29,788 bases of DNA, from NCBI GenBank assembly GCA_031425655.1, contig JANPJS010000023.1, positions 1-29,788 of the forward strand, in the 5' to 3' direction. The notes beneath the pieces were generated by a model that was given only the letters and a program-made list of their open reading frames with translations, was not told the origin of the DNA and ran no database searches. The stretch comes from Abditibacteriaceae bacterium (GTDB taxonomy: Bacteria; Armatimonadota; Abditibacteriia; Abditibacteriales; Abditibacteriaceae). Below, piece by piece: positions 2 through 29,743 of the stretch. Within the stretch, counting starts at the first letter, position 1, and each line of letters starts with the position of its first letter. The translations under genes and the position numbers were made by a program.

Positions 2-118
2 TGTGCCGTCGCGCGTAAACTGGCCCGCTTGTGTTGGTCGCTGGTCACCCACGGCACAACTTACGACCCCGACCGCGCTTACCAACAAAACTCCCAAAAG
101 GAGTCGCCGACCCCTTGA
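2..118 (+). CDS. IS110-family (DEDD recombinase/transposase) C-terminal end, 5'-truncated by the window edge
   Basis: Manual translation of frame +2 gives CAVARKLARLCWSLVTHGTTYDPDRAYQQNSQKESPTP* (TGA 116-118). AVARKLARxxWxxxxxGxxYDP is the typical C-terminal signature of IS110 transposases. It is not in the ORF track because there is no start codon in the window. Confidence 0.88.
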   Translation, partial: CAVARKLARLCWSLVTHGTTYDPDRAYQQNSQKESPTP

Positions 119-135
119 CTTCAACCATAGAATCT
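115..135 (+). promoter_or_regulatory. Orphan -35 box (TTGACT) of the IS110 circle-junction promoter
   Basis: TTGACT 115-120 is followed by 15 nt up to and including the CT core. Two more nt from the left end would give a 17-bp spacer in the excised circle. There is no -10 box at the right distance in the chromosomal flank. Confidence 0.65.
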
Positions 136-211
136 CTGGGCGGGCGCGTGTCCCCGCAAGAAATGCGGCTATCGTTGAAATGCGTTTCTCCTAAAAAAAC
201 AAAAGGTTCCT

Positions 212-274
212 GCCGACGAATCGGCTCCTCAAAGCGGCGCCAAGCCACCGCACTCCAGAGACAGCAACTTGGGT
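212..274. repeat. Right half of a REP-containing IS982-like MITE (same family as 8345-8507), interrupted by the IS110
   Basis: 212-278 aligns ungapped with 8445-8511 at 56/67 nt, including AAAGCGGCG..CCGCACTCCA and the terminal AGCAACTTGGGT. Confidence 0.8.
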
Positions 275-365
275 TAATGCCATTGGAGCGTTCGACATGG
301 TTGGTTAGTGCTTTGGCTCATTTTGTGTGAACGGGACGTGTTCCTTCAAACTGAAAGAGGTAAAA

Positions 366-7256: not shown

Positions 7257-8225
7257 ATGGCTTTTCCGATTCATCGTCCGCGCCGCTTGCGCGCAACGCC
7301 GACGCTGCGCCGCATGGTGCGCGAAACCCATCTCTCGCCCGACGACCTCATCGCGCCGCTTTTCGTGCAGCTCGGCGAGAACCTGCGCGAACCAATCGGC
7401 TCGATGCCCGGCCAGTTTCGATGGTCGCCCGACAGCGCCGCCGCCGAAGCGCGCGAATTGTGGAATCTGGGCATTCCTGCCGTGATTTTGTTCGGCATTC
7501 CCGATAGCAAAGACGAAAGCGGCAGCGGCGCTTACGATGCGCGCGGCCCGGTTCCGCTGGCCATCAAGGCCATCAAAAGCGCGGTTCCCGAAATGGTCGT
7601 TATCGCCGACACCTGCGCCTGCGAATACACCTCGCACGGGCACTGCGGCATTTTACACGGCGAGCGCGTGGACAACGACCAAACGCTGCCCTTATTAAGC
7701 AAAGCCGCGCTCTGCTACGCACAAGCCGGCGCCGACATTATCGCGCCCTCGGACATGATGGATGGTCGCGTCGGCGCCATTCGCGCCGCTTTGGATGCCG
7801 GCCATTTCGCGGACGTGCCGATTATGAGTTACGCCGCCAAGTTCGCCGGTGCTTTTTACGGCCCGTTCCGCGATGCCGCCGACAGCACGCCCGCTTTTGG
7901 CGACCGGCGCAGTTATCAAATGGACATTGCCAATCGCCGCGAAGCCCTGCGCGAAATGGCGCTCGATCTGGAAGAAGGCGCCGACTTTTTGATGGTCAAA
8001 CCGGCGCTGTTTTGTCTGGATATTTTGCGCGAGGCGCGCGACCGTTTCAACGTGCCGCTGTGCGCTTACAACGTCAGCAGCGAGTATTCGATGATTAAAG
8101 CGGCAGGCCAATTGGGTTGGATTAACGAAGCGCAACTCATCGAAGAAACGCTGCTTTCCATCAAGCGCGCCGGAGCCGATTTAATCATCACTTACCACGC
8201 CAAAGAATGGGCGGCACGACAGTAA
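7257..8225 (+). CDS. hemB: Porphobilinogen synthase (delta-aminolevulinate dehydratase), Zn-binding type
   Basis: RPRRLR N-terminus, Zn site DTCACEYTSHGHCG, APSDMMDGR, SYAAKF..FYGPFRDA, MVKPA. ATG 7257. Confidence 0.98.
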   Translation: MAFPIHRPRRLRATPTLRRMVRETHLSPDDLIAPLFVQLGENLREPIGSMPGQFRWSPDSAAAEARELWNLGIPAVILFGIPDSKDESGSGAYDARGPVPLAIKAIKSAVPEMVVIADTCACEYTSHGHCGILHGERVDNDQTLPLLSKAALCYAQAGADIIAPSDMMDGRVGAIRAALDAGHFADVPIMSYAAKFAGAFYGPFRDAADSTPAFGDRRSYQMDIANRREALREMALDLEEGADFLMVKPALFCLDILREARDRFNVPLCAYNVSSEYSMIKAAGQLGWINEAQLIEETLLSIKRAGADLIITYHAKEWAARQ

Positions 8226-8605
8226 TTCACCGCAGAGAACGCGGAGGGCGCTGAGGAGACATGGAGTCAGGAGACACGGAGTCAGGAGACACGCAGTCAG
8301 GAGACATGGAGTCAGGAGACACGGAGACACGGAGACATAATATAACCCAAGTTGCTACCTATGCGGCAATTTGGAGTGCGCAAACTTGTTCGCGCCGTTT
8401 CGAGCCGACTTGTCGGCGTAAAACCTCCAAAACAGACGGGTTATGCCCACAAGTCGGCTCTTAAAAGCGGCGACAAGTCGCCGCACTCCATAGGTAGCAA
8501 CTTGGGTTAATATAGGAAGCTGTTTGTTGTTCTCCCCATCTCCCCATCTCCCCATCTCCCCATCTCCGTGTCTCCTCAGCGTCCTCCCCGTTCTCTGCGG
8601 TGAAT
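8225..8605. repeat. Large composite palindrome between convergent hemB and rhomboid genes
   Basis: Outer arms 8225-8261 and 8569-8605 are 35/37 complementary (ATTCACCGCAGAGAACG...). Inside are a 15-mer GGAGACAYGSAGTCA x4 plus GGAGACAY x3 (8255-8338) and CTCCCCAT x4 (8532-8563). Confidence 0.9.
8345..8507. mobile_element. 163-bp MITE with IS982-like TIRs and a 7-bp target duplication, carrying a GGAGTGCG/CGCACTCC REP doublet
   Basis: Perfect 19-bp TIR ACCCAAGTTGCTACCTATG (8345-8363) / CATAGGTAGCAACTTGGGT (8489-8507), flanked by TAATATA at 8338-8344 and 8508-8514. ACCC ends with ~7-bp AT-rich direct repeats are characteristic of the IS982 family. Confidence 0.75.
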
Positions 8606-15911: not shown

Positions 15912-16068
15912 GAAGTAGTTTGAAAAGTGGGGGCGACTCCCTTCCCCTTTGCCGTATCAAGGGGAAGGGTTGGGGATGGGGTTAAAAAACAGCAGAACCC
16001 CACCCTAACACCTGCCCAGAGGGCACCCGCCTTAAACGGCAAGGGGAGGGGACTTTTCAGAATATCTC
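15912..16068. mobile_element. 157-bp MITE-like element (degenerate IS5/IS1031-like TIRs, TAA duplication) carrying a CCCCT/AGGGG-type REP doublet
   Basis: Left GAAGTAGTTTGAAAAGT matches the reverse complement of the right end, GAGATATTCTGAAAAGT, at 13/17. TAA at 15909-15911 and 16069-16071. Inverted REP units at 15935-15983 and 15996-16054. Confidence 0.6.
16015..16028 (-). other. 14-nt cassette GGGTGCCCTCTGGG inserted in a REP unit (putative empty IS110 target), copy 1
   Basis: 16011-16031 is the exact reverse complement of 23540-23560 (21/21). The cassette is absent from the partner REP unit. Confidence 0.7.
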
Positions 16069-16079
16069 TAAGGAATACC

Positions 16080-17369
16080 ATGAATCCAAAGCAAAACAAC
16101 GAAAGCGGCGTTTCGCGCCGCAGGTTCTTAGCGGGCGCGGCGGCCACCATCGGCACGCCGTATATTCTGACTTCGGCGGCGCTGGGCCAGCCGGGCAGCG
16201 GCAAGGCTCCGGCCAACAGCCGCATCGTGATGGGCCAAATCGGCATCGGCAATCAGGGCAGCGGCTTGCTCGGCAACTTTCACGGCAAGAGTCAGGTGCA
16301 AATGATCGCCGTCTCCGATGTCAAACCGCCGATTTTGGACGCGGCCTACAAGCGCATCGGCTCGCCGCAGGGCGGAGCGTATCTCGATTTCCGCGACATC
16401 ATCGCGCGCCCCGACATTGACGCCCTCGTTATCGCCACTCCCGATCACTGGCACGCCATCATGTGCATCGAAGCCATGAAAAACGGCAAAGATGTGTATT
16501 GCGAAAAACCGCTTTCGTTGACTATCGCCGAGGCACGCGCGATGGTAGACGCGGCGCGTCGCTATGGCCGCGTTTTTCAAACCGGTTCGATGCAGCGTTC
16601 GATGGACACTTTTCGTTTCGCAGTTAATGCGATTCGCAACGGAGTCATCGGAAACATCAAAACAATGACTGTCGGCCTGCCGAACGATGGTCGGACTGCG
16701 TTGGAATATGGTTTGGGCCGAGGCCCGGACACCGCGCCTCCACCCGGTTTCGACTACGATATGTGGCTCGGCCCGGCGCCTCTGAGGCCTTACAATTCTG
16801 AGCGCGTCAGCGGCAACTACGGCGGCGGCTGGCGTTATTACCGTGATTACTCCGGCGGCATGATGACTGACTGGGGCGCGCATCACTTCGACATCGCGCA
16901 GTGGGCGATGGGCATGGACAATAGCGGCCCGACCGAGATTTATCCGGCAGGAACGGAAGGCTATCCCACGTTGACCTATAAATATGCGAACGGCGTCGTC
17001 ATGTCGCTCGGCCCTAAGGGATTTCCCAACGGCTTGAAGGTTGTCGGCGATGCCGGCGAAATATTTGTCAGTCGCAGCGAAGTCACGCCTGATGCGGCCC
17101 GGCGTTTCCGGCCCGGCCCGCTGGAAGTTAATGTCAATCGCGGGCGCGGGCACGACGAAGATTGGATTGAATGCATCAAAACGCGCGAAAAGCCCATCTG
17201 CGACGTGGAAATCGGCGCCCGCAGCGCGACGGTGTGCCATTTGGGCAACATTTGCCAATGGGTGCAACGTCCGATCAAATGGGACCCGGCCAAAGAAGAA
17301 ATCATCGGCGACCCGGAAGCCAGTCGTTGGTTGTCGCGCCCGTATCGCGCGCCGTGGCGTTTGGGCTGA
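16080..17369 (+). CDS. Tat-exported Gfo/Idh/MocA oxidoreductase
   Basis: ATG 16080 with AAGGA; SRRRFL; IGIGNQG, IATPDHWH, DVYCEKPL, WLGPAP, DWGAHHFD. Confidence 0.95.
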   Translation: MNPKQNNESGVSRRRFLAGAAATIGTPYILTSAALGQPGSGKAPANSRIVMGQIGIGNQGSGLLGNFHGKSQVQMIAVSDVKPPILDAAYKRIGSPQGGAYLDFRDIIARPDIDALVIATPDHWHAIMCIEAMKNGKDVYCEKPLSLTIAEARAMVDAARRYGRVFQTGSMQRSMDTFRFAVNAIRNGVIGNIKTMTVGLPNDGRTALEYGLGRGPDTAPPPGFDYDMWLGPAPLRPYNSERVSGNYGGGWRYYRDYSGGMMTDWGAHHFDIAQWAMGMDNSGPTEIYPAGTEGYPTLTYKYANGVVMSLGPKGFPNGLKVVGDAGEIFVSRSEVTPDAARRFRPGPLEVNVNRGRGHDEDWIECIKTREKPICDVEIGARSATVCHLGNICQWVQRPIKWDPAKEEIIGDPEASRWLSRPYRAPWRLG

Positions 17370-17385
17370 TTCGCCGAAATTTTCC

Positions 17386-18555
17386 ATGAAGACTCGTTTT
17401 TTGCTCACGCTTGGTTTGGTGGCCGCGCCGCTTTGGGCGCAGCCGCCGGAGCCGCGTAAATCTAAACCCGCCGCGCCGCCGATTTCGCTTGAAGAAGCGA
17501 ATAAGGTCTTGGGCGGGCCGACGCTCATCACATTGCATCTCAAGGACGCAACGCCGCAAAACATCGTTAAAGAATTTGCGCGTGTTTCCGGTGTCGCGGT
17601 GCGAATGTATTATGGTGGTTTGGAACGCGCCAAGACACTCTCGATTGATTTAGAGAATCAACCGTTCTGGTCGGCGATGCGCGAACTCTGCACCCTGTTA
17701 GGTGCCACTCCGCAGCCATTCAGCGGCGATTCCACCATAGTGCTGCAACCGGGCGCCGCCGGTTGGGCCGGCGGCGCGATGCTAACGCTCAGCCCGCTGG
17801 TTTCGCTGCGTCTCAGCCAGATCAGCCATACGCACACTTTCAAGCTGTCAAACGAGGGCGAAGGCATCAAAGCGGTCAGCGACGAGCATTCGCTGCCGAT
17901 TGTCGGCATGTTTTTGTTTGACCCTAAGGTGCGTCCTTTGTCCAATCCTATGCAAGTGACAATCACCGGAGCGGTGGATGAAAAAGGCGTAGCGATAACC
18001 AGCGAACCGGCTCACGCGTATAGCCAAATGCCGCTGATGTCCTCCCTGCAAATTCCGCTCAAGTGGCGCGCGGACATGGGCAAAAAGTTAGTGCGTTTGC
18101 GCGGCAACTTGAAATGTATCGTGATGAGCAAGCGTGAAGTCTGGGAAATTCCTGACGTGTTGAACGCGAAGGAAACCAGCAAAACCGTGCGCGGCCCGGA
18201 CGGGGACGAAATCTACACGTTTTTGGGAGTGCAGAAAACGGGAAACCAGTATCAGGTGCGCGTGAAGATCGAGCGCCCACAAGCGCTTATACATCCCAAT
18301 CAGCAGCCCGACGCTCAGCAGTTTTTATATGCACGGCGCGACGTGGGCCGCCTGATGAAATTGCAAGACGCCAATGGACGCAATTTGGGTTGGCAGGGTG
18401 GGGGCGGAGGCGATGATGCCATCGTAACTCACTTCGCCGAACTTCAAGACGCTGGCGAAAAATCGGAAGCCCCTCAGAAACTGATTCTGGAAATTCCCTT
18501 GGAATTCCGTGAACTCGAAGTGCCGTTTGAATTGAAAGATTTACCCTTGCCGTAA
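17386..18555 (+). CDS. Secreted hypothetical protein (STN-like N-terminus, beta-sandwich C-terminus)
   Basis: MKTRFLLTLGL signal peptide; TLITLHLKDATPQNIV..FARVSG; C-terminus EVPFELKDLPLP, reminiscent of planctomycete-type hypotheticals. The ORF-track extension to 17041 overlaps the preceding gene. Confidence 0.8.
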   Translation: MKTRFLLTLGLVAAPLWAQPPEPRKSKPAAPPISLEEANKVLGGPTLITLHLKDATPQNIVKEFARVSGVAVRMYYGGLERAKTLSIDLENQPFWSAMRELCTLLGATPQPFSGDSTIVLQPGAAGWAGGAMLTLSPLVSLRLSQISHTHTFKLSNEGEGIKAVSDEHSLPIVGMFLFDPKVRPLSNPMQVTITGAVDEKGVAITSEPAHAYSQMPLMSSLQIPLKWRADMGKKLVRLRGNLKCIVMSKREVWEIPDVLNAKETSKTVRGPDGDEIYTFLGVQKTGNQYQVRVKIERPQALIHPNQQPDAQQFLYARRDVGRLMKLQDANGRNLGWQGGGGGDDAIVTHFAELQDAGEKSEAPQKLILEIPLEFRELEVPFELKDLPLP

Positions 18556-18597
18556 CGACGCGGCACCACTTAGGAACTTACGTCGAAAGGATTCAGA

Positions 18598-21264
18598 ATG
18601 AACCGCAAGACAAGACGCCGCACGTTCGGCAAAAACTGGCGAATGCTCGTGCTGGGCGCGGCCTTATTGAACGCTCCGCTATTGCTGAGCACGGCCCGCG
18701 CGCAGAGCGATGCCGACATCGCCGCTTGGAAAACCGAGTTTCAAAACGCGCCTAAAACCAACGTGGCCAGCGCCAGAACCGCTTACGCCGCGCTGCTCGA
18801 CAAACTGCTGCCCGGCATGGCCAACGCCGATTACGACACGCGCTACCGCGCGCAGGACGCGTGGGAAAAGATCGCGCTGAACTCGGCACGTCCGGGCGCC
18901 GAATCCGAGCGGGCGGGCGCCGTTCAGGCGATGCTGGCCAAAATCGGCGCCGACACGCCGCCAATCGCACGCGAATGGCTGCTCAAGCAACTGGAATCCA
19001 TCGGTCGCGCCGACGCAGTGCCGGCTTTGACGCCGCTCATCAACGACGCGGACATGGTGATTCGCAATCGCGCCTTGCGTGGCTTGGCCGCGAATTCATC
19101 GCCCGAAGCCGAAACGGCGCTGCTGAATGCGCTTCAGCGCGCGACGACGCCCGAAACGCGCATCGCTTTCATCAACGCGCTGGCTTATCGCCGTTCAGAG
19201 GCGGCTGTCGCGCCGATTAGCGCGTTGCTGACAGCCGACGAAGCCGTTGCGATGGCCGCAGCCGACGCTCTGGGCAACATCGGAGGCACAACGGCAGCGC
19301 GTTCGCTGGGCGCGGCGCGGGCAGCAGCTTCGCCGAAATTGAAAATCGCGCTTCTCAATAATTCCATCAAGGCCGCCGATAGTCTGGCGGCTGCCAAGAA
19401 AGATGCCGGCGCGGCGGCGGTTTATCAGGAAATCTGGAATTCGCAGGAAGCGCCGCGCTTTCGCGTTGCGGCTTTGCGCGGTTTAGCCATGACGCGCGGC
19501 GTCGAAGCCTTGCCGATGGTGTTTCAAGCTCTGGGCGGCGACGATGCGTTTCTTTCCACAACGGCAGGTCGTTTGTTGGTAGATTTGCCGGGCGCCGAAT
19601 CGGGCAAAGCCATTGCGCGCCAGTTGCCCGGCTTGCAGCCCGCCGCGCAGGTCAGCGTGATTCAAGCTTTGGCCGAGCGCCGCGATTTGGCCTCGCGTCC
19701 CGCCGTTTTGGCTTTGGCCAGCAGCGCCGACCAAAACGTGAAATTAGCCGCCTTGCGCGCTCTTGGCGTTATAGGCGATGCTTCGGACACCACGATGCTG
19801 GCCCAACTGGCAGCGACCGACAAAACCCCGGTCGGCGCAGCGGCGCGTAGCAGTCTTGACCGTTTGCCCGGCGAACCGGCCAATATGGCGATGGTGAAGC
19901 TCTTTATGACTGCCACGCCTGAAGTGCGCGCCGAATTGGCACGCAGTCTGGCGGCGCGCCGCGCATCGAGCGCCGCGACTTCGATGTTGGCTTCGGCGGA
20001 AACCGGCAACGCAACCGAGCGACTGGAAGCGATTAAGGCGCTTGGCGTGCTGGGCGACGAAAAAGTGGTGCCGAATCTGGTGAAACTGCTCGTCAAATCG
20101 CCTAACGACGGCCATCGGGACGCTGCGCGGGATGCGCTCAAAGATATTTTGGACAATCGCACGCAAGACAAAACCATTGCGGGCAATGCTTTAGTCGCCG
20201 GCCTCAACGGTGCCGATCCCGCATCCAAGCGCGCCTTGTTTACGCTGATGAAAAGCACTGGCGGCGAGCAAACTTTGGCCTCGCTTCTGGCTGCGACGAA
20301 GGATGCCAATCCCGATGTGCAGGACGCGGCGATTCGCACCTTGGCGCAGTGGCCCGAAGGCGGCGCGGTGCCGATTCTCAGCAATTTGGCCACGACAACG
20401 CCGAATCTGGCTTATCACACGCTGGCGTTGGGCGGCGTGGTGCGTCTTAGCGCGCAACCGGCCTTTTCGACCGACGAGCGCGTCAAAATGCTGCAAAGCG
20501 TGCTGACGACGGCCAAGCGTCCCGACGAAAAGCGCGCCGCTTTGAACGCCTTAGCCAAAGTCGTTGACCCCGATGCGCTGGCTGCCGTGCGGCCTTTGCT
20601 CGATAGTGCCGATCTTAAAGAAGAGGCCGCGTTGGCTGCGGTCAGCATCGGAAAAAGCATGGGCGGCGACGATGTCAAAGCCGTGATGCAGCAGGTTATC
20701 GCAACCTCCAAAAACGCCGATACCGTAAAAGCCGCGACCGAAGTTCTCAACCGGCCCATTCCCACGGTTCACCTCTGGCAAATTGTCGGGCCGTTCCCCA
20801 ACGCCGACGGCAGCGGTTTTGATAAGGATTTCGGTTTGGAAAGAACCGTTGATCTCAAAAAGGCCTATACGCTCGAAGGCAACAAAAAGGCGAGCTTCAA
20901 GACCGTCACACCCAACGCGGAAACCGGCTACGTCAACTTGCTTGAGCAATACGACGTGAAGGAAAACGCGGCGGCTTACGGCGTGATTTACGTCAAAAGC
21001 CCGACGGCGCGCCCCGCTCATCTCACTGGCGGCTCGGACGACGGCATGAAAGCGTGGGTCAACGGCAAGCGCGTGGTGTCGAATAATGCGGCGCGTGCGG
21101 CCAATCCCAACGACGAACACGCCGATATTCAGCTTAAAGAAGGCTGGAACGAGATTCTCGTCAAAATCACGCAGGGCAGCGGCGATTGGGGTTTTTATCT
21201 TGATCTGCAAACGCCCGACAAAAAGCCCATGACCGATTTGCAATGGTCGGCACGACCGAACTAA
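18598..21264 (+). CDS. Secreted HEAT/PBS-lyase-repeat protein with a C-terminal beta-sandwich (GSDDG motif) domain
   Basis: Signal peptide; many AVPAL..L..D..VR..A..AL repeats; C-terminal WQIVGPF..GSDDGMKAWVNG..LKEGWNEILVKI..WGF. Confidence 0.88.
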   Translation: MNRKTRRRTFGKNWRMLVLGAALLNAPLLLSTARAQSDADIAAWKTEFQNAPKTNVASARTAYAALLDKLLPGMANADYDTRYRAQDAWEKIALNSARPGAESERAGAVQAMLAKIGADTPPIAREWLLKQLESIGRADAVPALTPLINDADMVIRNRALRGLAANSSPEAETALLNALQRATTPETRIAFINALAYRRSEAAVAPISALLTADEAVAMAAADALGNIGGTTAARSLGAARAAASPKLKIALLNNSIKAADSLAAAKKDAGAAAVYQEIWNSQEAPRFRVAALRGLAMTRGVEALPMVFQALGGDDAFLSTTAGRLLVDLPGAESGKAIARQLPGLQPAAQVSVIQALAERRDLASRPAVLALASSADQNVKLAALRALGVIGDASDTTMLAQLAATDKTPVGAAARSSLDRLPGEPANMAMVKLFMTATPEVRAELARSLAARRASSAATSMLASAETGNATERLEAIKALGVLGDEKVVPNLVKLLVKSPNDGHRDAARDALKDILDNRTQDKTIAGNALVAGLNGADPASKRALFTLMKSTGGEQTLASLLAATKDANPDVQDAAIRTLAQWPEGGAVPILSNLATTTPNLAYHTLALGGVVRLSAQPAFSTDERVKMLQSVLTTAKRPDEKRAALNALAKVVDPDALAAVRPLLDSADLKEEAALAAVSIGKSMGGDDVKAVMQQVIATSKNADTVKAATEVLNRPIPTVHLWQIVGPFPNADGSGFDKDFGLERTVDLKKAYTLEGNKKASFKTVTPNAETGYVNLLEQYDVKENAAAYGVIYVKSPTARPAHLTGGSDDGMKAWVNGKRVVSNNAARAANPNDEHADIQLKEGWNEILVKITQGSGDWGFYLDLQTPDKKPMTDLQWSARPN

Positions 21265-21265
21265 A

Positions 21266-21345
21266 GAATTGAGAATTTAGAATGAAGAATGGAGAAAGCA
21301 GATCGCTCGAACTTTTCTCTATTCTTCATTCTAAATTCTCAATTC
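21266..21345. repeat. Heptamer-built (AGAATNN) perfect inverted repeat
   Basis: GAATTGAGAATTTAGAATGAAGAAT (21266-21290) pairs with ATTCTTCATTCTAAATTCTCAATTC (21321-21345) at 25/25. Confidence 0.9.
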
Positions 21346-21361
21346 ACATTAAAGGAGTTTC

Positions 21362-22228
21362 ATGTTTTCGATTAACAAAATTTTATGTGGCGCCGGTGTG
21401 TTTCTGGCCGTAGTGGCTGGTAGCGCGCGAGCCGCAGAGCCGTTGCCCGACAGTTTGAAGACCGGCGAGTTCATCATCGGCTGTCAGGCATGGACGTTCA
21501 ACAAGTTCACGACTTTCGAGGCGATTGAAAAAACCAAAGCCGCCGGCGCCAAAGTCATCGAAATGTATCCGGGCCAAAAGATGTCGGCAGACGACGCGGT
21601 CGGCGTTGGCCCCGGCATGAACGCGGCGCAAATGCAAAAGCTCAAAGAAAAGTTGGCGAAGGAAGGCATCAAAGCCGTCGCCTTCGGCGTGACCGGCATC
21701 TCGAAGGACGAAAACGAGGCGCGCAAGCTGTTCGCGTGGGCCAAAGACATGGATATTGGCCTCATCAACACGGAATCGGCGGACGCCATTGATACTATCG
21801 AAAAAATGGTCAAGGAATTCGACATCAAAGTCGGTTTTCACGACCATCCGCGCCGCGCCGACAATCCGGGTTATCGGATGTGGGACCCGTTTTACATTCG
21901 CGATTTGGTCAAAGACCGCGATATGCGCATCGGAGCCTGCGCCGATACCGGACACTGGGTTCGTTCGGGCCTGAACCCGGTTTACTGCTTGAAAATTCTC
22001 AAGGGCCGCATCGTGGGTAGCCATTTAAAGGACTTGCACGTCTTTGAAGCAGGCGGCCACGATATGCCCTACGGCACCGGCGTCAGCGACGTGCCGGGCA
22101 TTCTCAACGAGTTCAAACGGCAGGGCTTTACCGGCCCGATTTCAGTCGAATACGAACACAAACAGGACAACAATCTGCCCGAAGTGACGCAGTCCATCGC
22201 TTTCGTGCGCGATTTCAAAACCAAGTGA
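21362..22228 (+). CDS. Secreted sugar-phosphate isomerase/epimerase-fold (AP_endonuc_2 TIM barrel) protein, candidate 3-ketoglycoside lyase
   Basis: RBS AAGGAG; signal peptide; GCQAWTF, GFHDHP, ADTGHW, HLKD, GTG, SVEYE. Confidence 0.9.
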   Translation: MFSINKILCGAGVFLAVVAGSARAAEPLPDSLKTGEFIIGCQAWTFNKFTTFEAIEKTKAAGAKVIEMYPGQKMSADDAVGVGPGMNAAQMQKLKEKLAKEGIKAVAFGVTGISKDENEARKLFAWAKDMDIGLINTESADAIDTIEKMVKEFDIKVGFHDHPRRADNPGYRMWDPFYIRDLVKDRDMRIGACADTGHWVRSGLNPVYCLKILKGRIVGSHLKDLHVFEAGGHDMPYGTGVSDVPGILNEFKRQGFTGPISVEYEHKQDNNLPEVTQSIAFVRDFKTK

Positions 22229-22246
22229 TTTTGGTTGGGAAAGTAG

Positions 22247-22280
22247 AAGGGACGGGCATTTTTTGCCCGTCCCTTTTGTT
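22247..22280 (+). terminator. Rho-independent terminator
   Basis: AAGGGACGGGCA-TTTTT-TGCCCGTCCCTT followed by TTGTTTT. Confidence 0.85.
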
Positions 22281-22347
22281 TTGAAAAAATTTACAACTTT
22301 CGCTTGAATTTTGCAGTCCTAAACGGGATTTTTGCAAGGAGAATCTA

Positions 22348-22866
22348 ATGAGCCAATGTAATGAAAAGGCGCACGCCTGCGGTAGCCGCCGCGAATTCCT
22401 CGTCCGCACCCTGACCGCCGCCGGTGGCGCGATGGTCGGTTTATCCATCGCCGCGAACGCCGCCGACGCGCCGGCCACACCGCCGGTCGCCGCTACAACG
22501 ACCACCACGACGACCACCACGACAGCGACATCCAGCGATGTCATTTTGGAACTGAGCGCGCATCCGGCGCTGGCGAAAATCGGCGGGTCGGAAATCATTG
22601 ACAGCCCCGCCGGAAAAATCCTCGTAATGCGCACCGGACAAGACACTTTCGCGGCGACTTCGGCGATTTGCACGCACAAAAAAGGCCCGCTCACCTACGA
22701 CGCCAAAAGCGGGAAGATCGTCTGCGACACGCATGGCGCCCTTTTCAGCACCGATGGCAAAGTCGTCGAAGGCCCGGCTAAAATTGACTTGAAGTCTTAC
22801 GTGTCAGGCCCCGCCGCCGTGCTGCACTTAGCCGACAAACCTGCCGCTACCGAAGCCGCGAAGTAA
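22348..22866 (+). CDS. Tat-exported Rieske [2Fe-2S] protein with a poly-Thr linker
   Basis: RBS AAGGAG; SRREFL; CTH and CDTHGALF ligand motifs; G.V..GPA. Confidence 0.92.
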   Translation: MSQCNEKAHACGSRREFLVRTLTAAGGAMVGLSIAANAADAPATPPVAATTTTTTTTTTATSSDVILELSAHPALAKIGGSEIIDSPAGKILVMRTGQDTFAATSAICTHKKGPLTYDAKSGKIVCDTHGALFSTDGKVVEGPAKIDLKSYVSGPAAVLHLADKPAATEAAK

Positions 22867-22886
22867 CCGCCTCTGCATCGTAAAAA

Positions 22887-22927
22887 GCAAGAGCCGCTCC
22901 CGAAATTTCGAGGGCGGCTCTTGTTGT
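22887..22927 (+). terminator. Probable rho-independent terminator
   Basis: GCAAGAGCCGCTCCCGAAATTTCGAGGGCGGCTCTTGT followed by TGT. Confidence 0.7.
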
Positions 22928-22945
22928 GTCAGGCTACGAATAATT

Positions 22946-22991
22946 TGGTTATTTAACCACTTGACACGCCTGGAGGTGACGCGAGTATAAT
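22946..22991 (+). promoter_or_regulatory. Sigma70 promoter TTGACA-N19-TATAAT with an upstream palindromic operator
   Basis: TTGACA 22961-22966, TATAAT 22986-22991, 19-nt spacer; palindrome TGGTTA-TT-TAACCA at 22946-22959. Confidence 0.65.
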
Positions 22992-23252
22992 TACTGTCAT
23001 ATTTATTTAACCGATAAATCATTCTTAATTTCAGGCGTTATCGCCATGTCGCAATCCTCAAGTTATTCTTCCCCTAAGTCGTCCGCTCGCAATTCGCAAT
23101 TCTTCCTTAACGAGTTTAGCCCGCCGTTTTCCTCCTGCTCCGCGCTTCCGTGCCGCGCTTTTGCGTGCCGGCGGCATTTTCGCGCCGCCACACCCGCGTT
23201 GCGCTTATTGGCGCCCACCTTTGCGATTTCGTGGCCCGCCGGCATAAAAAGC

Positions 23253-23402
23253 GACGTGGACTTGCGCCCGACCTACGTTCTGAACTGGCTGCCCGCTGCG
23301 GGCACCAGCACGATTATCAAAGTTCGCCTGCGTTATCTTTACAAAGGCGAGGAGTTCGGCAACTGGACGCCGTGGCAAAACTGGACGCTCCCCGGCGACT
23401 GA
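23253..23402 (+). pseudogene. 3' remnant of a small FN3/beta-sandwich-type protein gene
   Basis: DVDLRPTYVLNWLPAAGTSTIIKVRLRYLYKGEEFGNWTPWQNWTLPGD* has coding-like codons and an FN3-like strand F/G pattern (R.RY....GNW). The upstream part of ORF 23046..23402 is low-complexity hairpin DNA. Confidence 0.45.
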
Positions 23403-23404
23403 CC

Positions 23405-23565
23405 ACCCCATCCCCGGCCCTTCCCCTTGAAACGGCAAAGGGGGAGGGAGTCCCGCCGATTTTGCTTTGAGAAAAGTAATAGTTTTCTCGAAGCAGAAGG
23501 GACAGAACTCCCTTCCCCTGTCGTTCAAGGGGAAGGGCCGGCGGGTGCCCTCTGGGCAGGGGGTT
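23405..23565. repeat. CCCCT/AGGGG-type REP doublet (same family as 15935-16054) with a central hairpin
   Basis: Unit 23405-23452 is the near reverse complement of 15935-15982. The partner unit is 23507-23565. The spacer forms GCTTTGAGAAAA / TTTTCTCGAAGC. Confidence 0.85.
23543..23556 (+). other. 14-nt cassette GGGTGCCCTCTGGG inserted in a REP unit (putative empty IS110 target), copy 2
   Basis: The partner unit reads GGGCCGG-GG-ATGGGGT; this unit reads GGGCCGG-CGGGTGCCCTCTGGGC-AGGGGGT. Confidence 0.7.
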
Positions 23566-23624
23566 CGGCCTCAAGGCAAAACGCGCCGCCTCGGCGCGAG
23601 ATTTATTTAAGTTTGAGGAAAAAG

Positions 23625-24161
23625 ATGAACTATCTCCTCCGCACCTCTCGACTTGGCGCCGAGCGCGCCGCCCGCGTGAGCCATCGCTCACCGTTTTTGC
23701 TGCTGCCAGCCATGTTGCTGACCGGTTTTGGTCTGTCTGTGCCGTCGCAAGCGGCAAGCGCGGCGGGGCCGTGGGTGCAGCAACCCTTCGCGGCGCAAGC
23801 ACCGGCAGCTTCGGCGGCGAGTAGCGCCAAAGCCATCGCGCAACTCAAAGCAAGCGGGCAATACGACTCGCTCAGCGCGGCCATCGTGCGCGCTCGTTAT
23901 GGCGTGCGCGCCGTTGAGGGCGACGCTTCGTGCGTCTGGGCACAAAACCCAAATAACAATCTCAATAGCAGTTTCAGCGCGCGAGGCGTGCGTTTTCGCG
24001 TGACTGTGCCGCAACAGGGCACGCGCAAGGCAAAGGCTTATCAATCGGCGTGGCGGCTGCAAAGACTGGGCACGAGCGACGTATGGGTGGTGCAGGGGGC
24101 TTGCCCCCGCTGGTGGGGAATTTTTTGCGAGCAAAGCGTGCAACGTGCACACTTGCCGTAA
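23625..24161 (+). pseudogene. Truncated N-terminal part of a large secreted FG-GAP/beta-propeller-type surface protein
   Basis: RBS GAGGA and a signal-like segment. AIAQLKASGQYDSLSAAI..ARY, AQNP..NL.SSFSARGV and WRLQRLG resemble the N-terminal domain preceding FG-GAP repeats in large bacterial surface proteins. After ~24071 the frame runs into non-coding-looking DNA. Confidence 0.5.
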
Positions 24162-24193
24162 AGTTGGGTTACGCCCGTCGGGAGAACAACGTT

Positions 24194-27100
24194 ATGATGA
24201 AACAAATGATGAACAAGTCGTGCCGCGCGCTGCTGGCGTGCTTGATGCTGATGATCGGCGTGTGGTCGCTGCCGGCTCAAGCCCAGACCTTCAGCGCCAC
24301 CGGCAGCCTGACAACCGCGCGCAACGGTCACACGGCGACGCTGCTGGGCAACGGCAAGGTGCTGGTCACCGGTGGTGATAATAGCGGTGCTCTGGCGAGC
24401 AGTGAACTCTACGACCCGGCGACGGGCACTTTCAGCGCCACCGGCAGCTTGTCAACCGCGCGCTCATATCACACGGCGACGCTGCTGGGCAACGGCAAGG
24501 TGCTGATCACCGGCGGCTATAACTCCGGCAGTCCTCTGGCGAGCACCGAACTCTACGACTCGGCAACAGGCACTTTCAGCGCCACCGGCAGCATGGCGAC
24601 GGCGCGCGGCTTTCACACGGCGACGCTGCTGGGCAACGGTAAGGTGCTGGTCACCGGCGGCCTTAGCCCGGTCACTCTGGCGAGCAGCGAACTCTACGAC
24701 CCGGCGACGGGCACGTTCAGCGCCACGGGCAGTCTGACAACCGCGCGCTACGCTCACACGGCGACGCTGCTGAGTAACGGCAAGGTGCTGATCACTGGCG
24801 GCGATAATGGCCGACTTTCGAGCAGCGAACTCTACGACCCGGCGACGGGCACTTTCAGCGCAACGGGCAGCTTGGTGACGGGGCGCGCCTATCACATGGC
24901 GGCGCTGCTGGGCAATGGCAAAGTGCTGATCACCGGCGGCTATGGCTCCTCCGGTGGTCTGGCGAGCAGCGAACTCTACGACCCGGTGACCAGCACTTTC
25001 AGCGCCACCGGCAGCATGGCGACGGCGCGCAGCATTCACACGGCGACGCTGCTGGGCAACGTCAAGGTGCTGGTCACCGGCGGTGATAATAGCGGTCGCT
25101 TGGCGAGCAGCGAACTTTACGACCCGGCGACGGGCACTTTCAGCGCCACCGGCAGTCTGACAAACGCGCGCTACTATCACACAGCGACGCTGCTGGGCAA
25201 CGGCAAGGTGCTGGTCACCGGTGGTGATAATAGCGGTGCTCTGGCGAGCAGCGAGCTTTATACGACTCCGGCTTCTTTCAGCATCAACGACGTGACGGCC
25301 AACGAAGGGAATAGTGGCACGACTAATTTCACCTTGACCGTCACGCGCAGCGGCGACACCAGCGGCACATCCACCGTCCACTATGTCACGAGCAACGGCA
25401 CCGCCACGGCGGGCAGCGACTTCACCGCGATTGCAGACACCACGCTCACCTTCGCTCCCGGCGACACGACCAAGACCATCACAGTGGCGGTGACCGGCGA
25501 TCAGGGCCTTGAGCCAAACGAAACCTTCAACGTCACGTTGAGCAATCCGACCAACGCCAGCATCACCACCGCGACGGGCCTCGGCACCATCACCAATGAC
25601 GACACGGGCCTGATCGTGACGACCACCGCTGACACTACGAACGGCAGCGACAACGACAACTCGCTGCGCGAAGCCATCAACGCGGCTAATGCCAACGCCG
25701 ACGCCAGCACCATCACCTTCAATATCTCCGGTGCTGGCGTGCAAACGCTGGCTCCCGCCACCGCCTTGCCGACCATAACGGAGCAAGCGACGATTGACGG
25801 CTACACGCAACCCGGCGCCAGCGCCAACACGCTGAGTGTTGGCACCAATGCGGTGCTGCGCATCGAACTCACCGGCGCGGGCACGGTTGGTTTCGACGGC
25901 CTGATAATTACCGCCGCGACCTGCACGGTCAGGGGCCTGGCCATTGGCAACTGCCGTTACGGCATTCAGTTGACCGGCGCGGGCGCCACCGGCAACGTGA
26001 TAAGCGGCAATTACCTCGGCACCAGGGCCGATGGTGCCACTGCCCTCGCCAACAGCGTCGGTATCCAGATCTTTAGTGCCGTGGGCAATACCATTGGCGG
26101 CACCGCCGCCGGAGCGCGCAACGTCATTTCCGGCAACAGCGACTACGGCATCTGGATCTTCGCCGCCACGGCGACGGGCAACACAGTGAAGGGCAATTAC
26201 ATCGGCACCGCAGCCGATGGCGCCACCGCCTGTGCCAACTTGTATGGTGTTCAAATTGCCGACGGCGTGGGCAACACTATCGGTGGCACCAGCGCCGCAG
26301 AGCGCAACATCATCTCCGGCAACGTCAACACTGGCATAAGAATCGAGGGTAGCACGACAGGGGTGATGGGCAACGTGATAAGCGGCAATTACATCGGCAC
26401 GCAAGCTAATGGCACCACCGCCTGTGCCAATATCACTGGTGTCGAGATCATTGCTGCCGCCGTGGGCAATACCATCGGCGGCACCACCGCCGGAGCGCGC
26501 AACGTCATTTCCGGCAACAGCGGCAGCGGCATCGAGATCCACGGCGGCGGGACACGCGGCACTGTGATTAGGGGCAATTACATCGGCACGCAGGCTAATG
26601 GCGCCACCCCCCTCTCCAACAGCATTGGCATCTATCTCCAAGGTGGCCTTGGGAGCAACACCATCGGCGGCACCGCTGCCGGAGAGGGCAACGTCATCTC
26701 CGGCAACATCGCTGAGGGCGTCCGCATTTTTGCCGGGACGGGCAACAGCCTGCGCGGCAACAGCATCTACAATAATGGCTTTCTGGGTTTTGATTTGAAC
26801 AGCGACAGCGTGACCGCCAACGACACCGGCGACGGTGACACCGGCGCGAACAACCTGCAAAACTACCCGGTGGTGACTTCGGCGATCAGCAACGGCGTTG
26901 ACAGCACCGTCGCCGGAACGCTGAACAGCACGTCGAACACGACCTTCACGCTGGACTTCTACGACAACGCCGCCGCCGACCCCTCCGGCTTCGGCGAAGG
27001 ACAAACCTATCTCGGTTCGGGCACTGTGACCACTGATGGCAGTGGCAACGGAAGTTTCAGCACCACTTTGACGGGTGTCATAGTGACCTCCGGTCACGCC

Positions 27101-29743
27101 ATCACGGCCACGGCCACCGACCCCGGCGGCAACACCAGCGAGTTCAGCCAGACGATTGCACCCACAGTGCCTACCTTGACTATCAACGATGTAAGCGCCA
27201 CCGAAGGCAGCCCGGCTGCCTTCACGGTGACGGCGACCCTGCCGGCCACGCGCACCAGCGCCACGACGGTCACGGTGAAATTCGCCACAGCGAACGGCAC
27301 CACGAATCCGGCAACAGCGGGCAGCGATTACACCGCGATCTCACCAGCCCAAACGCTGACCATCACGATTTCGGCAAATACGCTTTCCGCGACCGGCACT
27401 GTCAGCGTGACAACCACCAACGACACCATTGACGAAGTGAACGAAACGTTCTTCGTCAACCTGAGCAACCCCACCAATGCCATAGTCAGCGATGCCCAGG
27501 GCGTGGGCACTATTACCGACAACGACACCTCGCTGATTACCATCAACGATGTGACGGTGCCCGAAAACGGCGGCCCGGCAGTTTTTACCGTCAGCCTCAG
27601 CACGGCTAACAGCCAGCAGGTGACGGTGAACTACGCCACGGCCAACGGAACGACCAACCCGGCGACGGCGGGCAGCGATTATACCACGACCAACGGCACC
27701 CTCACATGGACGGCAGGCACCACAACGGCGAAAACCATCAGCGTGCCTCTCCTCAACGATACTACAGTTGAGGCGAACAAAACCTTTTTCGTGAACCTCA
27801 GCGGAGCAACCAACGCGACCATCTCCGACGCGCAAGGCCTCGGCACCATCAGCGACGACGATGCCGTGTTCAGCATCAACGACGCAACCACTGGCGAGGG
27901 CGGCACGGCGACCTTCACGGTCACGGCGACCCGTTCGATTGCCGTCGCGCAGGCCATCACAGTGAGCAGCAACTACGCCACGGCGAACGGCATGGCGACA
28001 ACACCCGCTGATTACACGAGCAAAACCGGTGCGGTTTCAGTGACGATTGCCGCCAGTGGAACCAGCGGCACCAACAGCACCACCATCGCAGTGCCAGCCC
28101 TCAACGATGCTTTAACTGAGGGGAACGAAACCTTCTTCGTGAATCTGAGCGGTGCGACTAACGGGACTTACTCCGATAGCCAGGGCCAGGGCACGATTAC
28201 CGACCCGGCGCCTCCGTCGCTGACCATCAATGACATGAGTGTCAGCGAAGGCGGCACGGCCACCTTTACAGTCGCGGCGACCCTGACAGGCACGAGCACC
28301 AGCGCCACTACGGTCACGGTGAACTACGCCTCAGCGGACGGCACCACGAACCCGGCGACGGCGGGCACCGATTACACGGCGATTTCTCCGGCCCAAACGC
28401 TGACCATCACGATTCCGGCGAATACACTTTCCGCGACCGGCACCGTCAGCGTGGCCACCACCAACGACACCATTGACGAGGTGGATGAAACCTTCTTTGT
28501 CAACCTGAGCAGTCCCACCAATGCCACCATCGGCGACGCGCAAGGCGTGGGCACCATCACCGACAACGATACCTCACTGATTACCATCAACGATGTGTCG
28601 GTGCCCGAAAACGGCGGCCCGGCAGTTTTCACCGTCAGCCTGAGCACAGCTAACAGCCAGCAGGTGACGGTGAACTACGCCACGGCCAACGGAACGACCA
28701 ACCCGGCGTCGGCGGGCAGCGATTACACCACGACCAACGGCACCCTCACTTGGGCGGCAGGCACCACAACTGCGAAGACGATCAGCGTGCCGATTCTTGA
28801 CAATGCGGTGATTGAATCAACGGAAACATTCTTCGTAAACCTCAGCGGCGCCACGAACGCGACTATCTCCGACGCGCAAGGCATCGGCACTATCACTAAC
28901 GACGACCTGCCGAAAGTCTTCGTCAGCGACGTGCAAATGTTTGAAGGCGACAGCGGCAACCGCGCTCTCTACCTCACTTTCGCATTGAACGCCTCACCGG
29001 CAGCCGATGTAACAGTGACCTATGCGACGCAAGGCATCACCGCAACGTCGGGCAGCGATTACGGAACTGTTACGGGAAGTTACACCTTCCCCGCCAACAC
29101 GACGACTCTGAGCAGGGCGGTCGGTGTAATCATCGTCGGCAATACGGTCGCGGAGGCCGATGAAACTTTCATACTCAAGCTGACCTCGGTGACGGGAGCG
29201 ACGATTCTCAAAGCCAACGGCACCGCCACCATTGTCAACGACGACGGCACTTACACAGGCCCCGTCAACGTCGGCGTGACCCCGAATAACGGAGGAGGTG
29301 CGGCGGGCACACCAGTTACTTTCACTACGGTGCAATCTGATGCAAATGGAGCAGCCGACATTTCGCAATCGCAGTTCATCGTGAACACGACTATTGGTTC
29401 GCCCTATTTGGCGCGCTGCTACTACAACGGCACTAACCTTTACCTGATGAGCGACGCCGGCACTTTCGTAGGCGGCTTCACGCCCGGTAGCGCCAACGTC
29501 ATTTCCAACAGTCAGGTCAGCCTCAATTGCGCGGGCACGACAGTGGTGAGAAGCGGCAACACTCTAACGATTCAGTGGAATCTCACTTTCAATGCCTCTT
29601 ACACCGGCACGAAGAACCTTTTCCTCTATGCCAAAGATAACACCAACCAGATCGCCGGATGGGATAATCTTGGCACTTGGACGATTACCGGCGCAGGCAT
29701 TTTAAGCCCCGTCTCCAGCGCTGAAGACGAACCCAGTTCCTAA
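24194..29743 (+). CDS. ~1850-aa surface protein: 7 Kelch repeats, Calx-beta, CSLREA-like + right-handed beta-helix, 6 further Calx-beta domains and a C-terminal beta-sandwich
   Basis: RBS GGAGA (24181), ATG 24194/24197 and a signal peptide ending AQA. TFSATGS..R..HTATLL.NGKVL.TGG..SELYDP x7; INDV..EG..D...E.NETF.V.LS..TI.D.D x7; NSLREAI; GNYIGT/NTIGG/RNVISGN repeats; C-terminal SGNTLTIQWNLTF..TGTKNLFLYA..GW..LGTW. Confidence 0.95.
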   Translation: MMKQMMNKSCRALLACLMLMIGVWSLPAQAQTFSATGSLTTARNGHTATLLGNGKVLVTGGDNSGALASSELYDPATGTFSATGSLSTARSYHTATLLGNGKVLITGGYNSGSPLASTELYDSATGTFSATGSMATARGFHTATLLGNGKVLVTGGLSPVTLASSELYDPATGTFSATGSLTTARYAHTATLLSNGKVLITGGDNGRLSSSELYDPATGTFSATGSLVTGRAYHMAALLGNGKVLITGGYGSSGGLASSELYDPVTSTFSATGSMATARSIHTATLLGNVKVLVTGGDNSGRLASSELYDPATGTFSATGSLTNARYYHTATLLGNGKVLVTGGDNSGALASSELYTTPASFSINDVTANEGNSGTTNFTLTVTRSGDTSGTSTVHYVTSNGTATAGSDFTAIADTTLTFAPGDTTKTITVAVTGDQGLEPNETFNVTLSNPTNASITTATGLGTITNDDTGLIVTTTADTTNGSDNDNSLREAINAANANADASTITFNISGAGVQTLAPATALPTITEQATIDGYTQPGASANTLSVGTNAVLRIELTGAGTVGFDGLIITAATCTVRGLAIGNCRYGIQLTGAGATGNVISGNYLGTRADGATALANSVGIQIFSAVGNTIGGTAAGARNVISGNSDYGIWIFAATATGNTVKGNYIGTAADGATACANLYGVQIADGVGNTIGGTSAAERNIISGNVNTGIRIEGSTTGVMGNVISGNYIGTQANGTTACANITGVEIIAAAVGNTIGGTTAGARNVISGNSGSGIEIHGGGTRGTVIRGNYIGTQANGATPLSNSIGIYLQGGLGSNTIGGTAAGEGNVISGNIAEGVRIFAGTGNSLRGNSIYNNGFLGFDLNSDSVTANDTGDGDTGANNLQNYPVVTSAISNGVDSTVAGTLNSTSNTTFTLDFYDNAAADPSGFGEGQTYLGSGTVTTDGSGNGSFSTTLTGVIVTSGHAITATATDPGGNTSEFSQTIAPTVPTLTINDVSATEGSPAAFTVTATLPATRTSATTVTVKFATANGTTNPATAGSDYTAISPAQTLTITISANTLSATGTVSVTTTNDTIDEVNETFFVNLSNPTNAIVSDAQGVGTITDNDTSLITINDVTVPENGGPAVFTVSLSTANSQQVTVNYATANGTTNPATAGSDYTTTNGTLTWTAGTTTAKTISVPLLNDTTVEANKTFFVNLSGATNATISDAQGLGTISDDDAVFSINDATTGEGGTATFTVTATRSIAVAQAITVSSNYATANGMATTPADYTSKTGAVSVTIAASGTSGTNSTTIAVPALNDALTEGNETFFVNLSGATNGTYSDSQGQGTITDPAPPSLTINDMSVSEGGTATFTVAATLTGTSTSATTVTVNYASADGTTNPATAGTDYTAISPAQTLTITIPANTLSATGTVSVATTNDTIDEVDETFFVNLSSPTNATIGDAQGVGTITDNDTSLITINDVSVPENGGPAVFTVSLSTANSQQVTVNYATANGTTNPASAGSDYTTTNGTLTWAAGTTTAKTISVPILDNAVIESTETFFVNLSGATNATISDAQGIGTITNDDLPKVFVSDVQMFEGDSGNRALYLTFALNASPAADVTVTYATQGITATSGSDYGTVTGSYTFPANTTTLSRAVGVIIVGNTVAEADETFILKLTSVTGATILKANGTATIVNDDGTYTGPVNVGVTPNNGGGAAGTPVTFTTVQSDANGAADISQSQFIVNTTIGSPYLARCYYNGTNLYLMSDAGTFVGGFTPGSANVISNSQVSLNCAGTTVVRSGNTLTIQWNLTFNASYTGTKNLFLYAKDNTNQIAGWDNLGTWTITGAGILSPVSSAEDEPSS

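Follow-up and report, generated by a model that had tools for sequence, protein, structure and literature searches.

A 20-nt cassette in unrelated repeats is the bridge-RNA target of an IS621-like IS110 element in an Abditibacteriaceae genome

Two repetitive extragenic palindromic (REP)-like doublets in a 29,788-nt stretch of an Abditibacteriaceae genome (contig JANPJS010000023.1 of assembly GCA_031425655.1, hereafter the window) carry an identical 21-mer, at 16011-16031 on the minus strand and at 23540-23560 on the plus strand, in one unit per doublet and at different offsets. Part of the same word borders a truncated IS110-family insertion sequence (IS) at the left edge of the window. What is this short piece of DNA, how is it related to the IS110, and what writes it into the repeats? 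The original prediction, made from the sequence alone, took it for the target of the IS110, deposited in REPs either as a scar of insertion and excision or by a separate process that seeds target sites. We find that it belongs to a cassette whose 14-mer, GGGTGCCCTCTGGG, is the bridge-RNA target of an IS621-like IS110, and we consider it likely that the cassette is an independent micro-element with a writer of its own, which the retargeted IS110 then used as a landing pad. The source genome is named G000 (5.98 Mb in 327 contigs) and other G numbers are its relatives, C stands for contig and L for locus; the window is contig C23, starting at contig base 1. The features discussed below are the following.

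2-118, plus strand: last 38 codons and stop codon of an IS110-family (IS621-like) recombinase; the remainder of the element is unassembled.
115-120, plus strand: TTGACT, a -35-like hexamer by sequence reading.
127-135, plus strand: right end of the IS, with left donor arm ATAGAAT (127-133) and CT core (134-135); the same end is found in 11 places of G000 and in related elements.
136-145, plus strand: right half of an IS-split cassette (right target CTGGG, then a C-GGG-C tail), inside a GGACACGC...GCGTGTCC hairpin repeat.
15936-16052, no strand given: REP-like doublet 1, whose plus-strand unit is empty and shows the GGATG empty allele of the site of copy 2.
16010-16029, minus strand: cassette copy 1, 20 nt in place of GGAGG in the hairpin arm (net +15), containing an unoccupied IS110 target at 16015-16028.
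23405-23566, no strand given: REP-like doublet 2, of the same family as doublet 1 by sequence comparison.
23542-23560, plus strand: cassette copy 2, 19 nt in place of GGATG in the tail (net +14, within a run of G), containing an unoccupied IS110 target at 23543-23556.

The cassette had been predicted to measure 14 nt and to add 14 nt to its host. The gain is correct for copy 2, where 19 nt replace 5, and not for copy 1, where 20 nt replace 5; according to the allele tables, the unit is 20 nt, C-GGGYGCCCTYTGGG-C-AGG-N, or a 19-nt form ending in C-GG-N. CAGG directly follows 72 of the 102 exact copies of the 14-mer in G000, in unrelated repeats, which indicates that AGG is part of the cassette. 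Copy 1 folds into a 5-bp hairpin with a 3-nt loop, and its site reads GGAGG in 13 of 19 same-site empty alleles. The window contains only two matches to the 16-nt core at up to two mismatches (shuffle mean 0.22). Besides its exact copies, the 14-mer has 166 one-mismatch and 84 two-mismatch copies in G000; the 102 exact copies compare with a Markov expectation of 0.01 at order 3, of 0.046 at order 5, which bears out the expected over-representation, and of 0.96 at order 7, where the model is trained on the copies themselves. Allowing one mismatch to the 16-nt core, 318 cassettes fall into about 72 site clusters, one haplotype occurring at up to 28 clusters, and the repeat family of the window alone has at least five cassette sites. 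The cassette is thus deposited rather than native to one REP, as had been proposed, since it occupies many positions in many repeat families and not one position of one REP subfamily. Repeat context was found for 214 of 247 cassettes, compared with 7.4% of random genome positions and 37% of non-coding positions (test based on a 16-mer count of 5; an earlier 12-mer version, with a background of 88%, was uninformative). G000 has very many families of intergenic repeats built of 7-8-nt tandem units and hairpins, all serving as cassette hosts. We also observe adjacent double cassettes, 20-26 nt apart (C187, C304, C56, and C194 of G000), each substituting its own 5 nt of one repeat.

The junctions of the IS110 link the element to the cassette. 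The right junction in the window reads ATAGAAT-CT-CTGGGC-GGG at 127-144, as predicted, and 10 of the 11 right IS ends in G000 run on into CTGGGC, the eleventh being a diverged remnant. The window opens at contig base 1, so the left flank had to be read from other contig ends. Before TGTATGG, the ten left junctions of G000 show CGGGTGCCCT (TG-type) seven times, CGGGCGCCCT (CG-type) twice, and CGGGTGCCTT (core change) once, and all of them end in the left half of the cassette. In G000, the CT core is present at nine of the ten left junctions and at all 11 right ones, and it is also present in all ten complete copies of G016, with no further target duplication. The GGACACGC...GCGTGTCC repeat that hosts the window copy is found with an unsplit cassette at C61:1223 and with a matching left junction at C212:6645.

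The guides agree with the junctions. In IS621, as far as the available text of PMC11208160 goes, a bridge RNA in the left end carries left and right target guides. Here, the left end carries GGGTGCCCT and CCCAGAG where the left and right target guides belong (G000, G003, and G016), and both match the cassette. The left-end RNA fold has a z-score of -2.26 in G000 and -3.27 in G016; a conserved GAAGAATC resembles the left donor, and the region of the right donor guide is unassembled in G000. A relative in G005 has different guides, which match a native repeat, indicating that guide and target change together. We conclude that GGGTGCCCTCTGGG is the bridge-RNA target of this element, and we place the IS in the IS621-like IS110 group as a new member. 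With left flanks, guides, abundance, and varied positions all in agreement, the claims of targeting and of deposition made in the original prediction both stand.

The 38-residue recombinase end in the window matches no Pfam family by itself, but is 84% identical to a piece on C101, which matches PF02371, and the full-length relative in G016 contains both PF01548 (DEDD RuvC-like) and PF02371. G016 has ten complete, identical IS copies with the same guides as G000, at loci labelled Abditibacterium sp. Joining the two IS ends would place TATGGT of the left end 17 nt downstream of TTGACT, which we read as a putative circle-junction promoter; promoter calling on the linear window, in an assembly from which the circle junction is absent, called none. 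G000 also contains a second, distant IS110 (region C54:37953-39000, L001), 34% identical at the C-terminus, whose host is a native hairpin repeat and not the cassette.

How does the cassette enter its sites? An unambiguous empty allele is available for 201 of 292 cassettes, and the net gain is +15 in 157 of them, +14 in 30, and another value in 14. The last of the five replaced bases is G in 175 of 187 cassettes and at 19 of 20 distinct sites; beyond this G, no target consensus was found among the 20 distinct sites. These alleles show that the cassette enters by substitution, with five host bases lost and no target duplication.

The same arithmetic is observed inside genes. TyrRS, which has a single match in G000, carries cassette variants at two sites, each adding exactly five amino acids (22 versus 17 amino acids in 2 and 3 same-genus orthologues), and the empty allele in G003 is 5 nt with G as its last base. 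DXS of G000 contains one in-frame variant, again exactly five additional amino acids (27, versus 22 in G001 and G003). Two tRNA genes located in tRNA arrays have the cassette at the same place, just 3' of the D arm: one of 87 nt with anticodon TCG in G000 (L064:602-688), and one with anticodon TTG in G013 (L459:574-659), where 32 nt stand for 18 model positions. An exact search in 60 relatives did not find the empty tRNA allele. Cassettes also interrupt transposase genes of the IS1, IS3, and IS4/5 types. In divergent IS3-type genes, the cassette is found three times at one RRHS-type coding motif, across two genomes (L238 and L240 in G006, L224 in G003). A second transposase family, presumably ISAs1, is also hit at one shared motif (C281 of G000 and L220 of G006), with no Pfam family for either piece. 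This recurrence at the same transposase motifs suggests that sites are chosen less randomly than the G rule implies. Separately, the split in a Y1 transposase-like gene of G009 (C3:2810438-2810816, L101) falls at a cassette.

The cassette family follows a common grammar, C-GGG-N2/3-CCC-loop-GGG-Y-(N)GG-N, of 19-24 nt, and a relaxed pattern has 347 matches in G000 versus 26 in the reversed control. The pair closing CCC-loop-GGG is G-C in 289, A-T in 31, and another combination in 10 of 330 cases, and loops include TCT, TTT, GCTTGC, and ACTTGT, although these stem and loop counts are copies and not independent events. Long-loop variants (23-24 nt) likewise substitute for 5 nt.

One source of such a cassette could be the IS110 itself. 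The transposing unit would then include the cassette halves and replace 5 nt at NNNNG, and the IS110 core would later excise at CT and leave the cassette as a scar. Nearly every IS end in G000 and all ten G016 copies do lie in a cassette, and the most cassette-rich genome has about ten IS copies. IS bodies also do get deleted from such sites: on the minus strand at C64:20284 of G000, a 28-nt left end of the IS runs straight into the remainder of the host repeat. This body seems to have been deleted between short GGTG(G)TGAGG-like matches, leaving an IS110 remnant of a different kind from the cassette. Nevertheless, the right flanks around the ten identical IS copies of G016 vary (CTGGG in six, TTGGG in three, CCGGG in one), so the cassette halves do not travel with the element. 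The cassette borders lie 8 nt to the left and 9-10 nt to the right of the core, outside the guide-paired 14 nt, whereas bridge recombination, in the accessible part of PMC11208160, exchanges strands at the core. Moreover, the long-loop variants are no IS target and yet obey the 5-nt rule, and only 102 of the 280 unoccupied main-type cassettes in G000 match the guide, whereas 178, including the commonest haplotype, do not. A scar in single-copy TyrRS (twice) or DXS (once) would also mean that a 1.3-kb insert had been survived, and an IS stage there amounts to the interruption of an essential gene. According to the portions available of two preprints (10.64898/2026.08.31.748434; 10.1101/2025.10.25.684509), IS110 elements use a copy-out route in which the donor site remains in place. 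Finally, cassettes occur in near-complete genomes that have no match to this IS110, and the targets of close IS110 relatives are other repeats. The scar is therefore largely refuted, and we regard it as very unlikely; the separate seeding process, which the original prediction had named beside it, is the option that fits.

The distribution across genomes leads to the same question from another side, and we observe that cassette and IS110 are decoupled. The 16-nt core is present in 44 of 301 genomes of the phylum, including 22 of the 26 in the family (18 of which have at least four copies) and nine outside the family with at least four copies. The IS clade is found in nine of 300 other genomes (E-value 1e-40), four of them without cassette. 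Conversely, G009, G011, and G012, assembled in 1-3 contigs and containing 26, 35, and 12 cassettes, show no match to this IS110 with either of the two queries, and the four PF01548 loci checked, of the five in these genomes, show no cassette halves. Outside the phylum, the relaxed pattern has 142 matches in one and 73 in the other of two metagenome-assembled genomes labelled Chloroflexota, against 6 and 4 in the controls, and these two unpublished genomes are the sole source of the cross-phylum occurrence; their IS110 relatives have other right flanks. A metagenome scan gave at least 130 matches, in 102 contexts among the matches listed. Viral occurrences (67 stretches, mostly single and in mixed contexts) were close to a rough chance estimate and were not used. 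In low-copy genomes, the four copies of G008 lie in one short repeat-like context, that of G013 in a tRNA, and those of G006 in transposases, and no home locus for the cassette was found in these three genomes.

This distribution also bears on the idea that new target sites are copies made by an RNA-guided protein related to IS110, or by this recombinase acting in trans through an undescribed route. Such self-seeding might explain why the elements of G000 and G016 use the same guide pair although they are only 74% identical at the C-terminus, and why the 16-nt core is conserved across a phylum; reactions that use the target loop only or a half match exist, according to the available sections of 10.1101/2025.10.25.684509 and 10.64898/2026.08.31.748434. 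However, G014 and G054 contain 74 and 13 cassettes and no PF01548 match, the majority haplotype and the long-loop variants mismatch the guide, and in G005, G301, and G302, all rich in cassettes, the relatives use other insertion sites. We consider this idea quite unlikely. A co-evolved two-step system of writer and IS110 that seeds pads and then fills them, possibly with an IS110-derived writer, would be the strongest form of an undescribed dedicated writer, and appears unlikely as well. The writer of the cassette is probably not the IS110.

Alternatively, no dedicated writer may be needed if gene conversion and repeat shuffling have spread the products of a few ancient events. At the GATTCTTC cluster, 24 of 26 copies share haplotype and terminal base, which indicates that amplification with the host repeat is real, and native repeats of relatives contain a similar short hairpin. 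Spread of this kind is nevertheless hard to reconcile with the 5-nt arithmetic shared by about 72 site clusters in unrelated repeats and by the sites in tRNA, transposase, and housekeeping genes, which have no flanking homology. As an account of the whole pattern, we find it highly improbable.

We therefore return to the independent micro-element with its own writer. We hypothesize that the writer reads a single-stranded 4-nt CGGG foot and a hairpin, a recognition suggested by the covarying stem, removes five bases, and leaves a variable last base. The cassette would land in many contexts, and selection would keep the copies in repeats, spare tRNAs, and dead transposases, with essential genes keeping a cassette only when the gain is 15 nt. 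Copies within repeats were probably further amplified along with the host repeat. The IS110 would then have reset its bridge-RNA guides to one common cassette haplotype and, as the observed junctions and guides suggest, would insert at the cassette CT by ordinary bridge recombination. The pad would thus come first and the IS second, and the pad would not be made by the IS. Because the IS targets the cassette, one guide reaches dozens of harmless sites in unrelated repeats.

Several observations weigh against this reading. A clear empty allele is missing for 91 of 292 cassettes, and cassettes in relatives have a shorter tail and take the place of 5 or 6 nt. The length of the DXS loop varies in any case, since G005 has 27 amino acids there without a cassette, and its motif was read in 12 of 26 loci. 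The genome panel is a sample, multicopy IS bodies collapse in short-read assemblies, as in G000, and the present-day absence of the IS is compatible with a lost IS ancestor. In the IS110 tree, 9 of 11 inner branches are open, so that one or several origins of cassette-targeting guides both fit. The writer itself was not found in our searches. G000 has no RVT_1 (PF00078) match, and a reverse transcriptase was rejected as candidate. Co-occurrence with Y1/RAYT genes was uninformative, as 25 of the 27 family genomes carry Y1 genes, in numbers that do not follow those of the cassettes (31 Y1 genes and 2 cassettes in G021, one weak Y1 gene and 77 cassettes in G019), and no cassette lies beside a Y1 gene in six G000 loci read by eye or in five loci of relatives that were scanned.

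Two possible templates were discarded separately. RNase P RNA resembles the cassette in 14 of 20 letters, a match chosen post hoc, and its AGG tail is not kept in relatives; in the bridge RNA, about 40 nt separate the two guides, and the CCT preceding the right guide belongs to the scaffold and is also found with other guides.

Our best guess for the writer, and a tentative one, is a single-strand cut-and-join enzyme of the HUH/Y1 kind, because the layout of a foot plus a hairpin resembles that of HUH substrates as given in the accessible text of PMC6006769. It is quite possible, although we stop short of calling it probable, that an undescribed dedicated writer works by such substitution, putting in 19-24 nt for 5-6 nt with a variable last base, and is widespread among bacterial phyla.

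Two further observations concern the window itself. In a nested repeat block at 8225-8605, inverted arms of 42 nt enclose 15-nt and 8-nt tandem repeats together with an inner inverted repeat, which is related to window positions 196-278. At 24050-29743, an open reading frame of 1897 amino acids contains an internal series of repeats of 47, about 63, and about 115 amino acids; its product is probably a surface protein.

Among known dispersed repeats, small dispersed repeats (SDRs) reportedly measure 21-27 nt, and we know of no mobiliser for them. The cassette, with 19-24 nt, dispersed and within other repeats, fits an SDR-type size and placement, in a comparison made from summaries. The summaries of PMC5861425 and PMC2884548 describe the SDRs of Nostocaceae (Elhai et al. 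2008) as about 20 nt, dispersed, thought to be mobile, and with one family inside another repeat (SDR5 in HIP1), like the cassette; in these summaries they are reported only in Nostocaceae, whereas the cassette is found in other phyla, has no fixed target word, replaces 5 nt ending at G, and serves as an IS110 landing pad.

REP/RAYT systems, intragenic REPs, and RPEs, in the available parts of PMC6006769 and PMC3733652, share with the cassette a tetranucleotide at the 5' foot of a short hairpin and, for intragenic REPs and RPEs, copies that lie in frame in housekeeping genes, tRNA synthetase genes among them; some REPs are also found within other palindromes. The cassette shows this RPE feature in intact TyrRS (twice) and DXS (once). 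In contrast, its 5' foot is an invariant CGGG and not GTAG, GTGG, or CGTC, and neither a GTAG nor a CGTC tag occurs in it. No REPtron was found at the 11 Y1 loci looked at, and the cassette enters other REPs rather than forming doublets of its own, by 5-nt substitution.

Other REP-targeting IS110 elements, namely IS621 (PMC11208160) and ISPpu10 (10.64898/2026.03.19.712850), in the text available for them, resemble ours in the CT core, the left-end bridge RNA, both guides including the core, and the use of repeated hairpin DNA as target. There, the target is a native REP segment, whereas the element here targets another mobile unit, the tiny cassette that occurs in dozens of unrelated repeats and also in genes. 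The literature searched, which left subscription papers and preprint supplements outside, contained no description of such a cassette or of the seeding of IS110 targets, and the accessible portions of 10.64898/2026.10.21.760802 and 10.64898/2026.03.19.712850 do not describe the cassette.

The cassette is among the smallest mobile DNAs, and its strict 5-base replacement rule is not explained by known transposase chemistry. With the rule, the grammar, the empty alleles, and a presence-absence panel in hand, the long-standing question of what mobilises 20-nt repeats can now be put to the test, and genome engineering would profit from a natural enzyme able to write a 20-nt recombinase landing pad beside almost any G. 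For the IS110 family, these results suggest that an RNA-guided transposon may solve its target problem by targeting a smaller mobile element whose copies selection has already restricted to harmless sites, so that one guide would give access to hundreds of sites in unrelated repeats.

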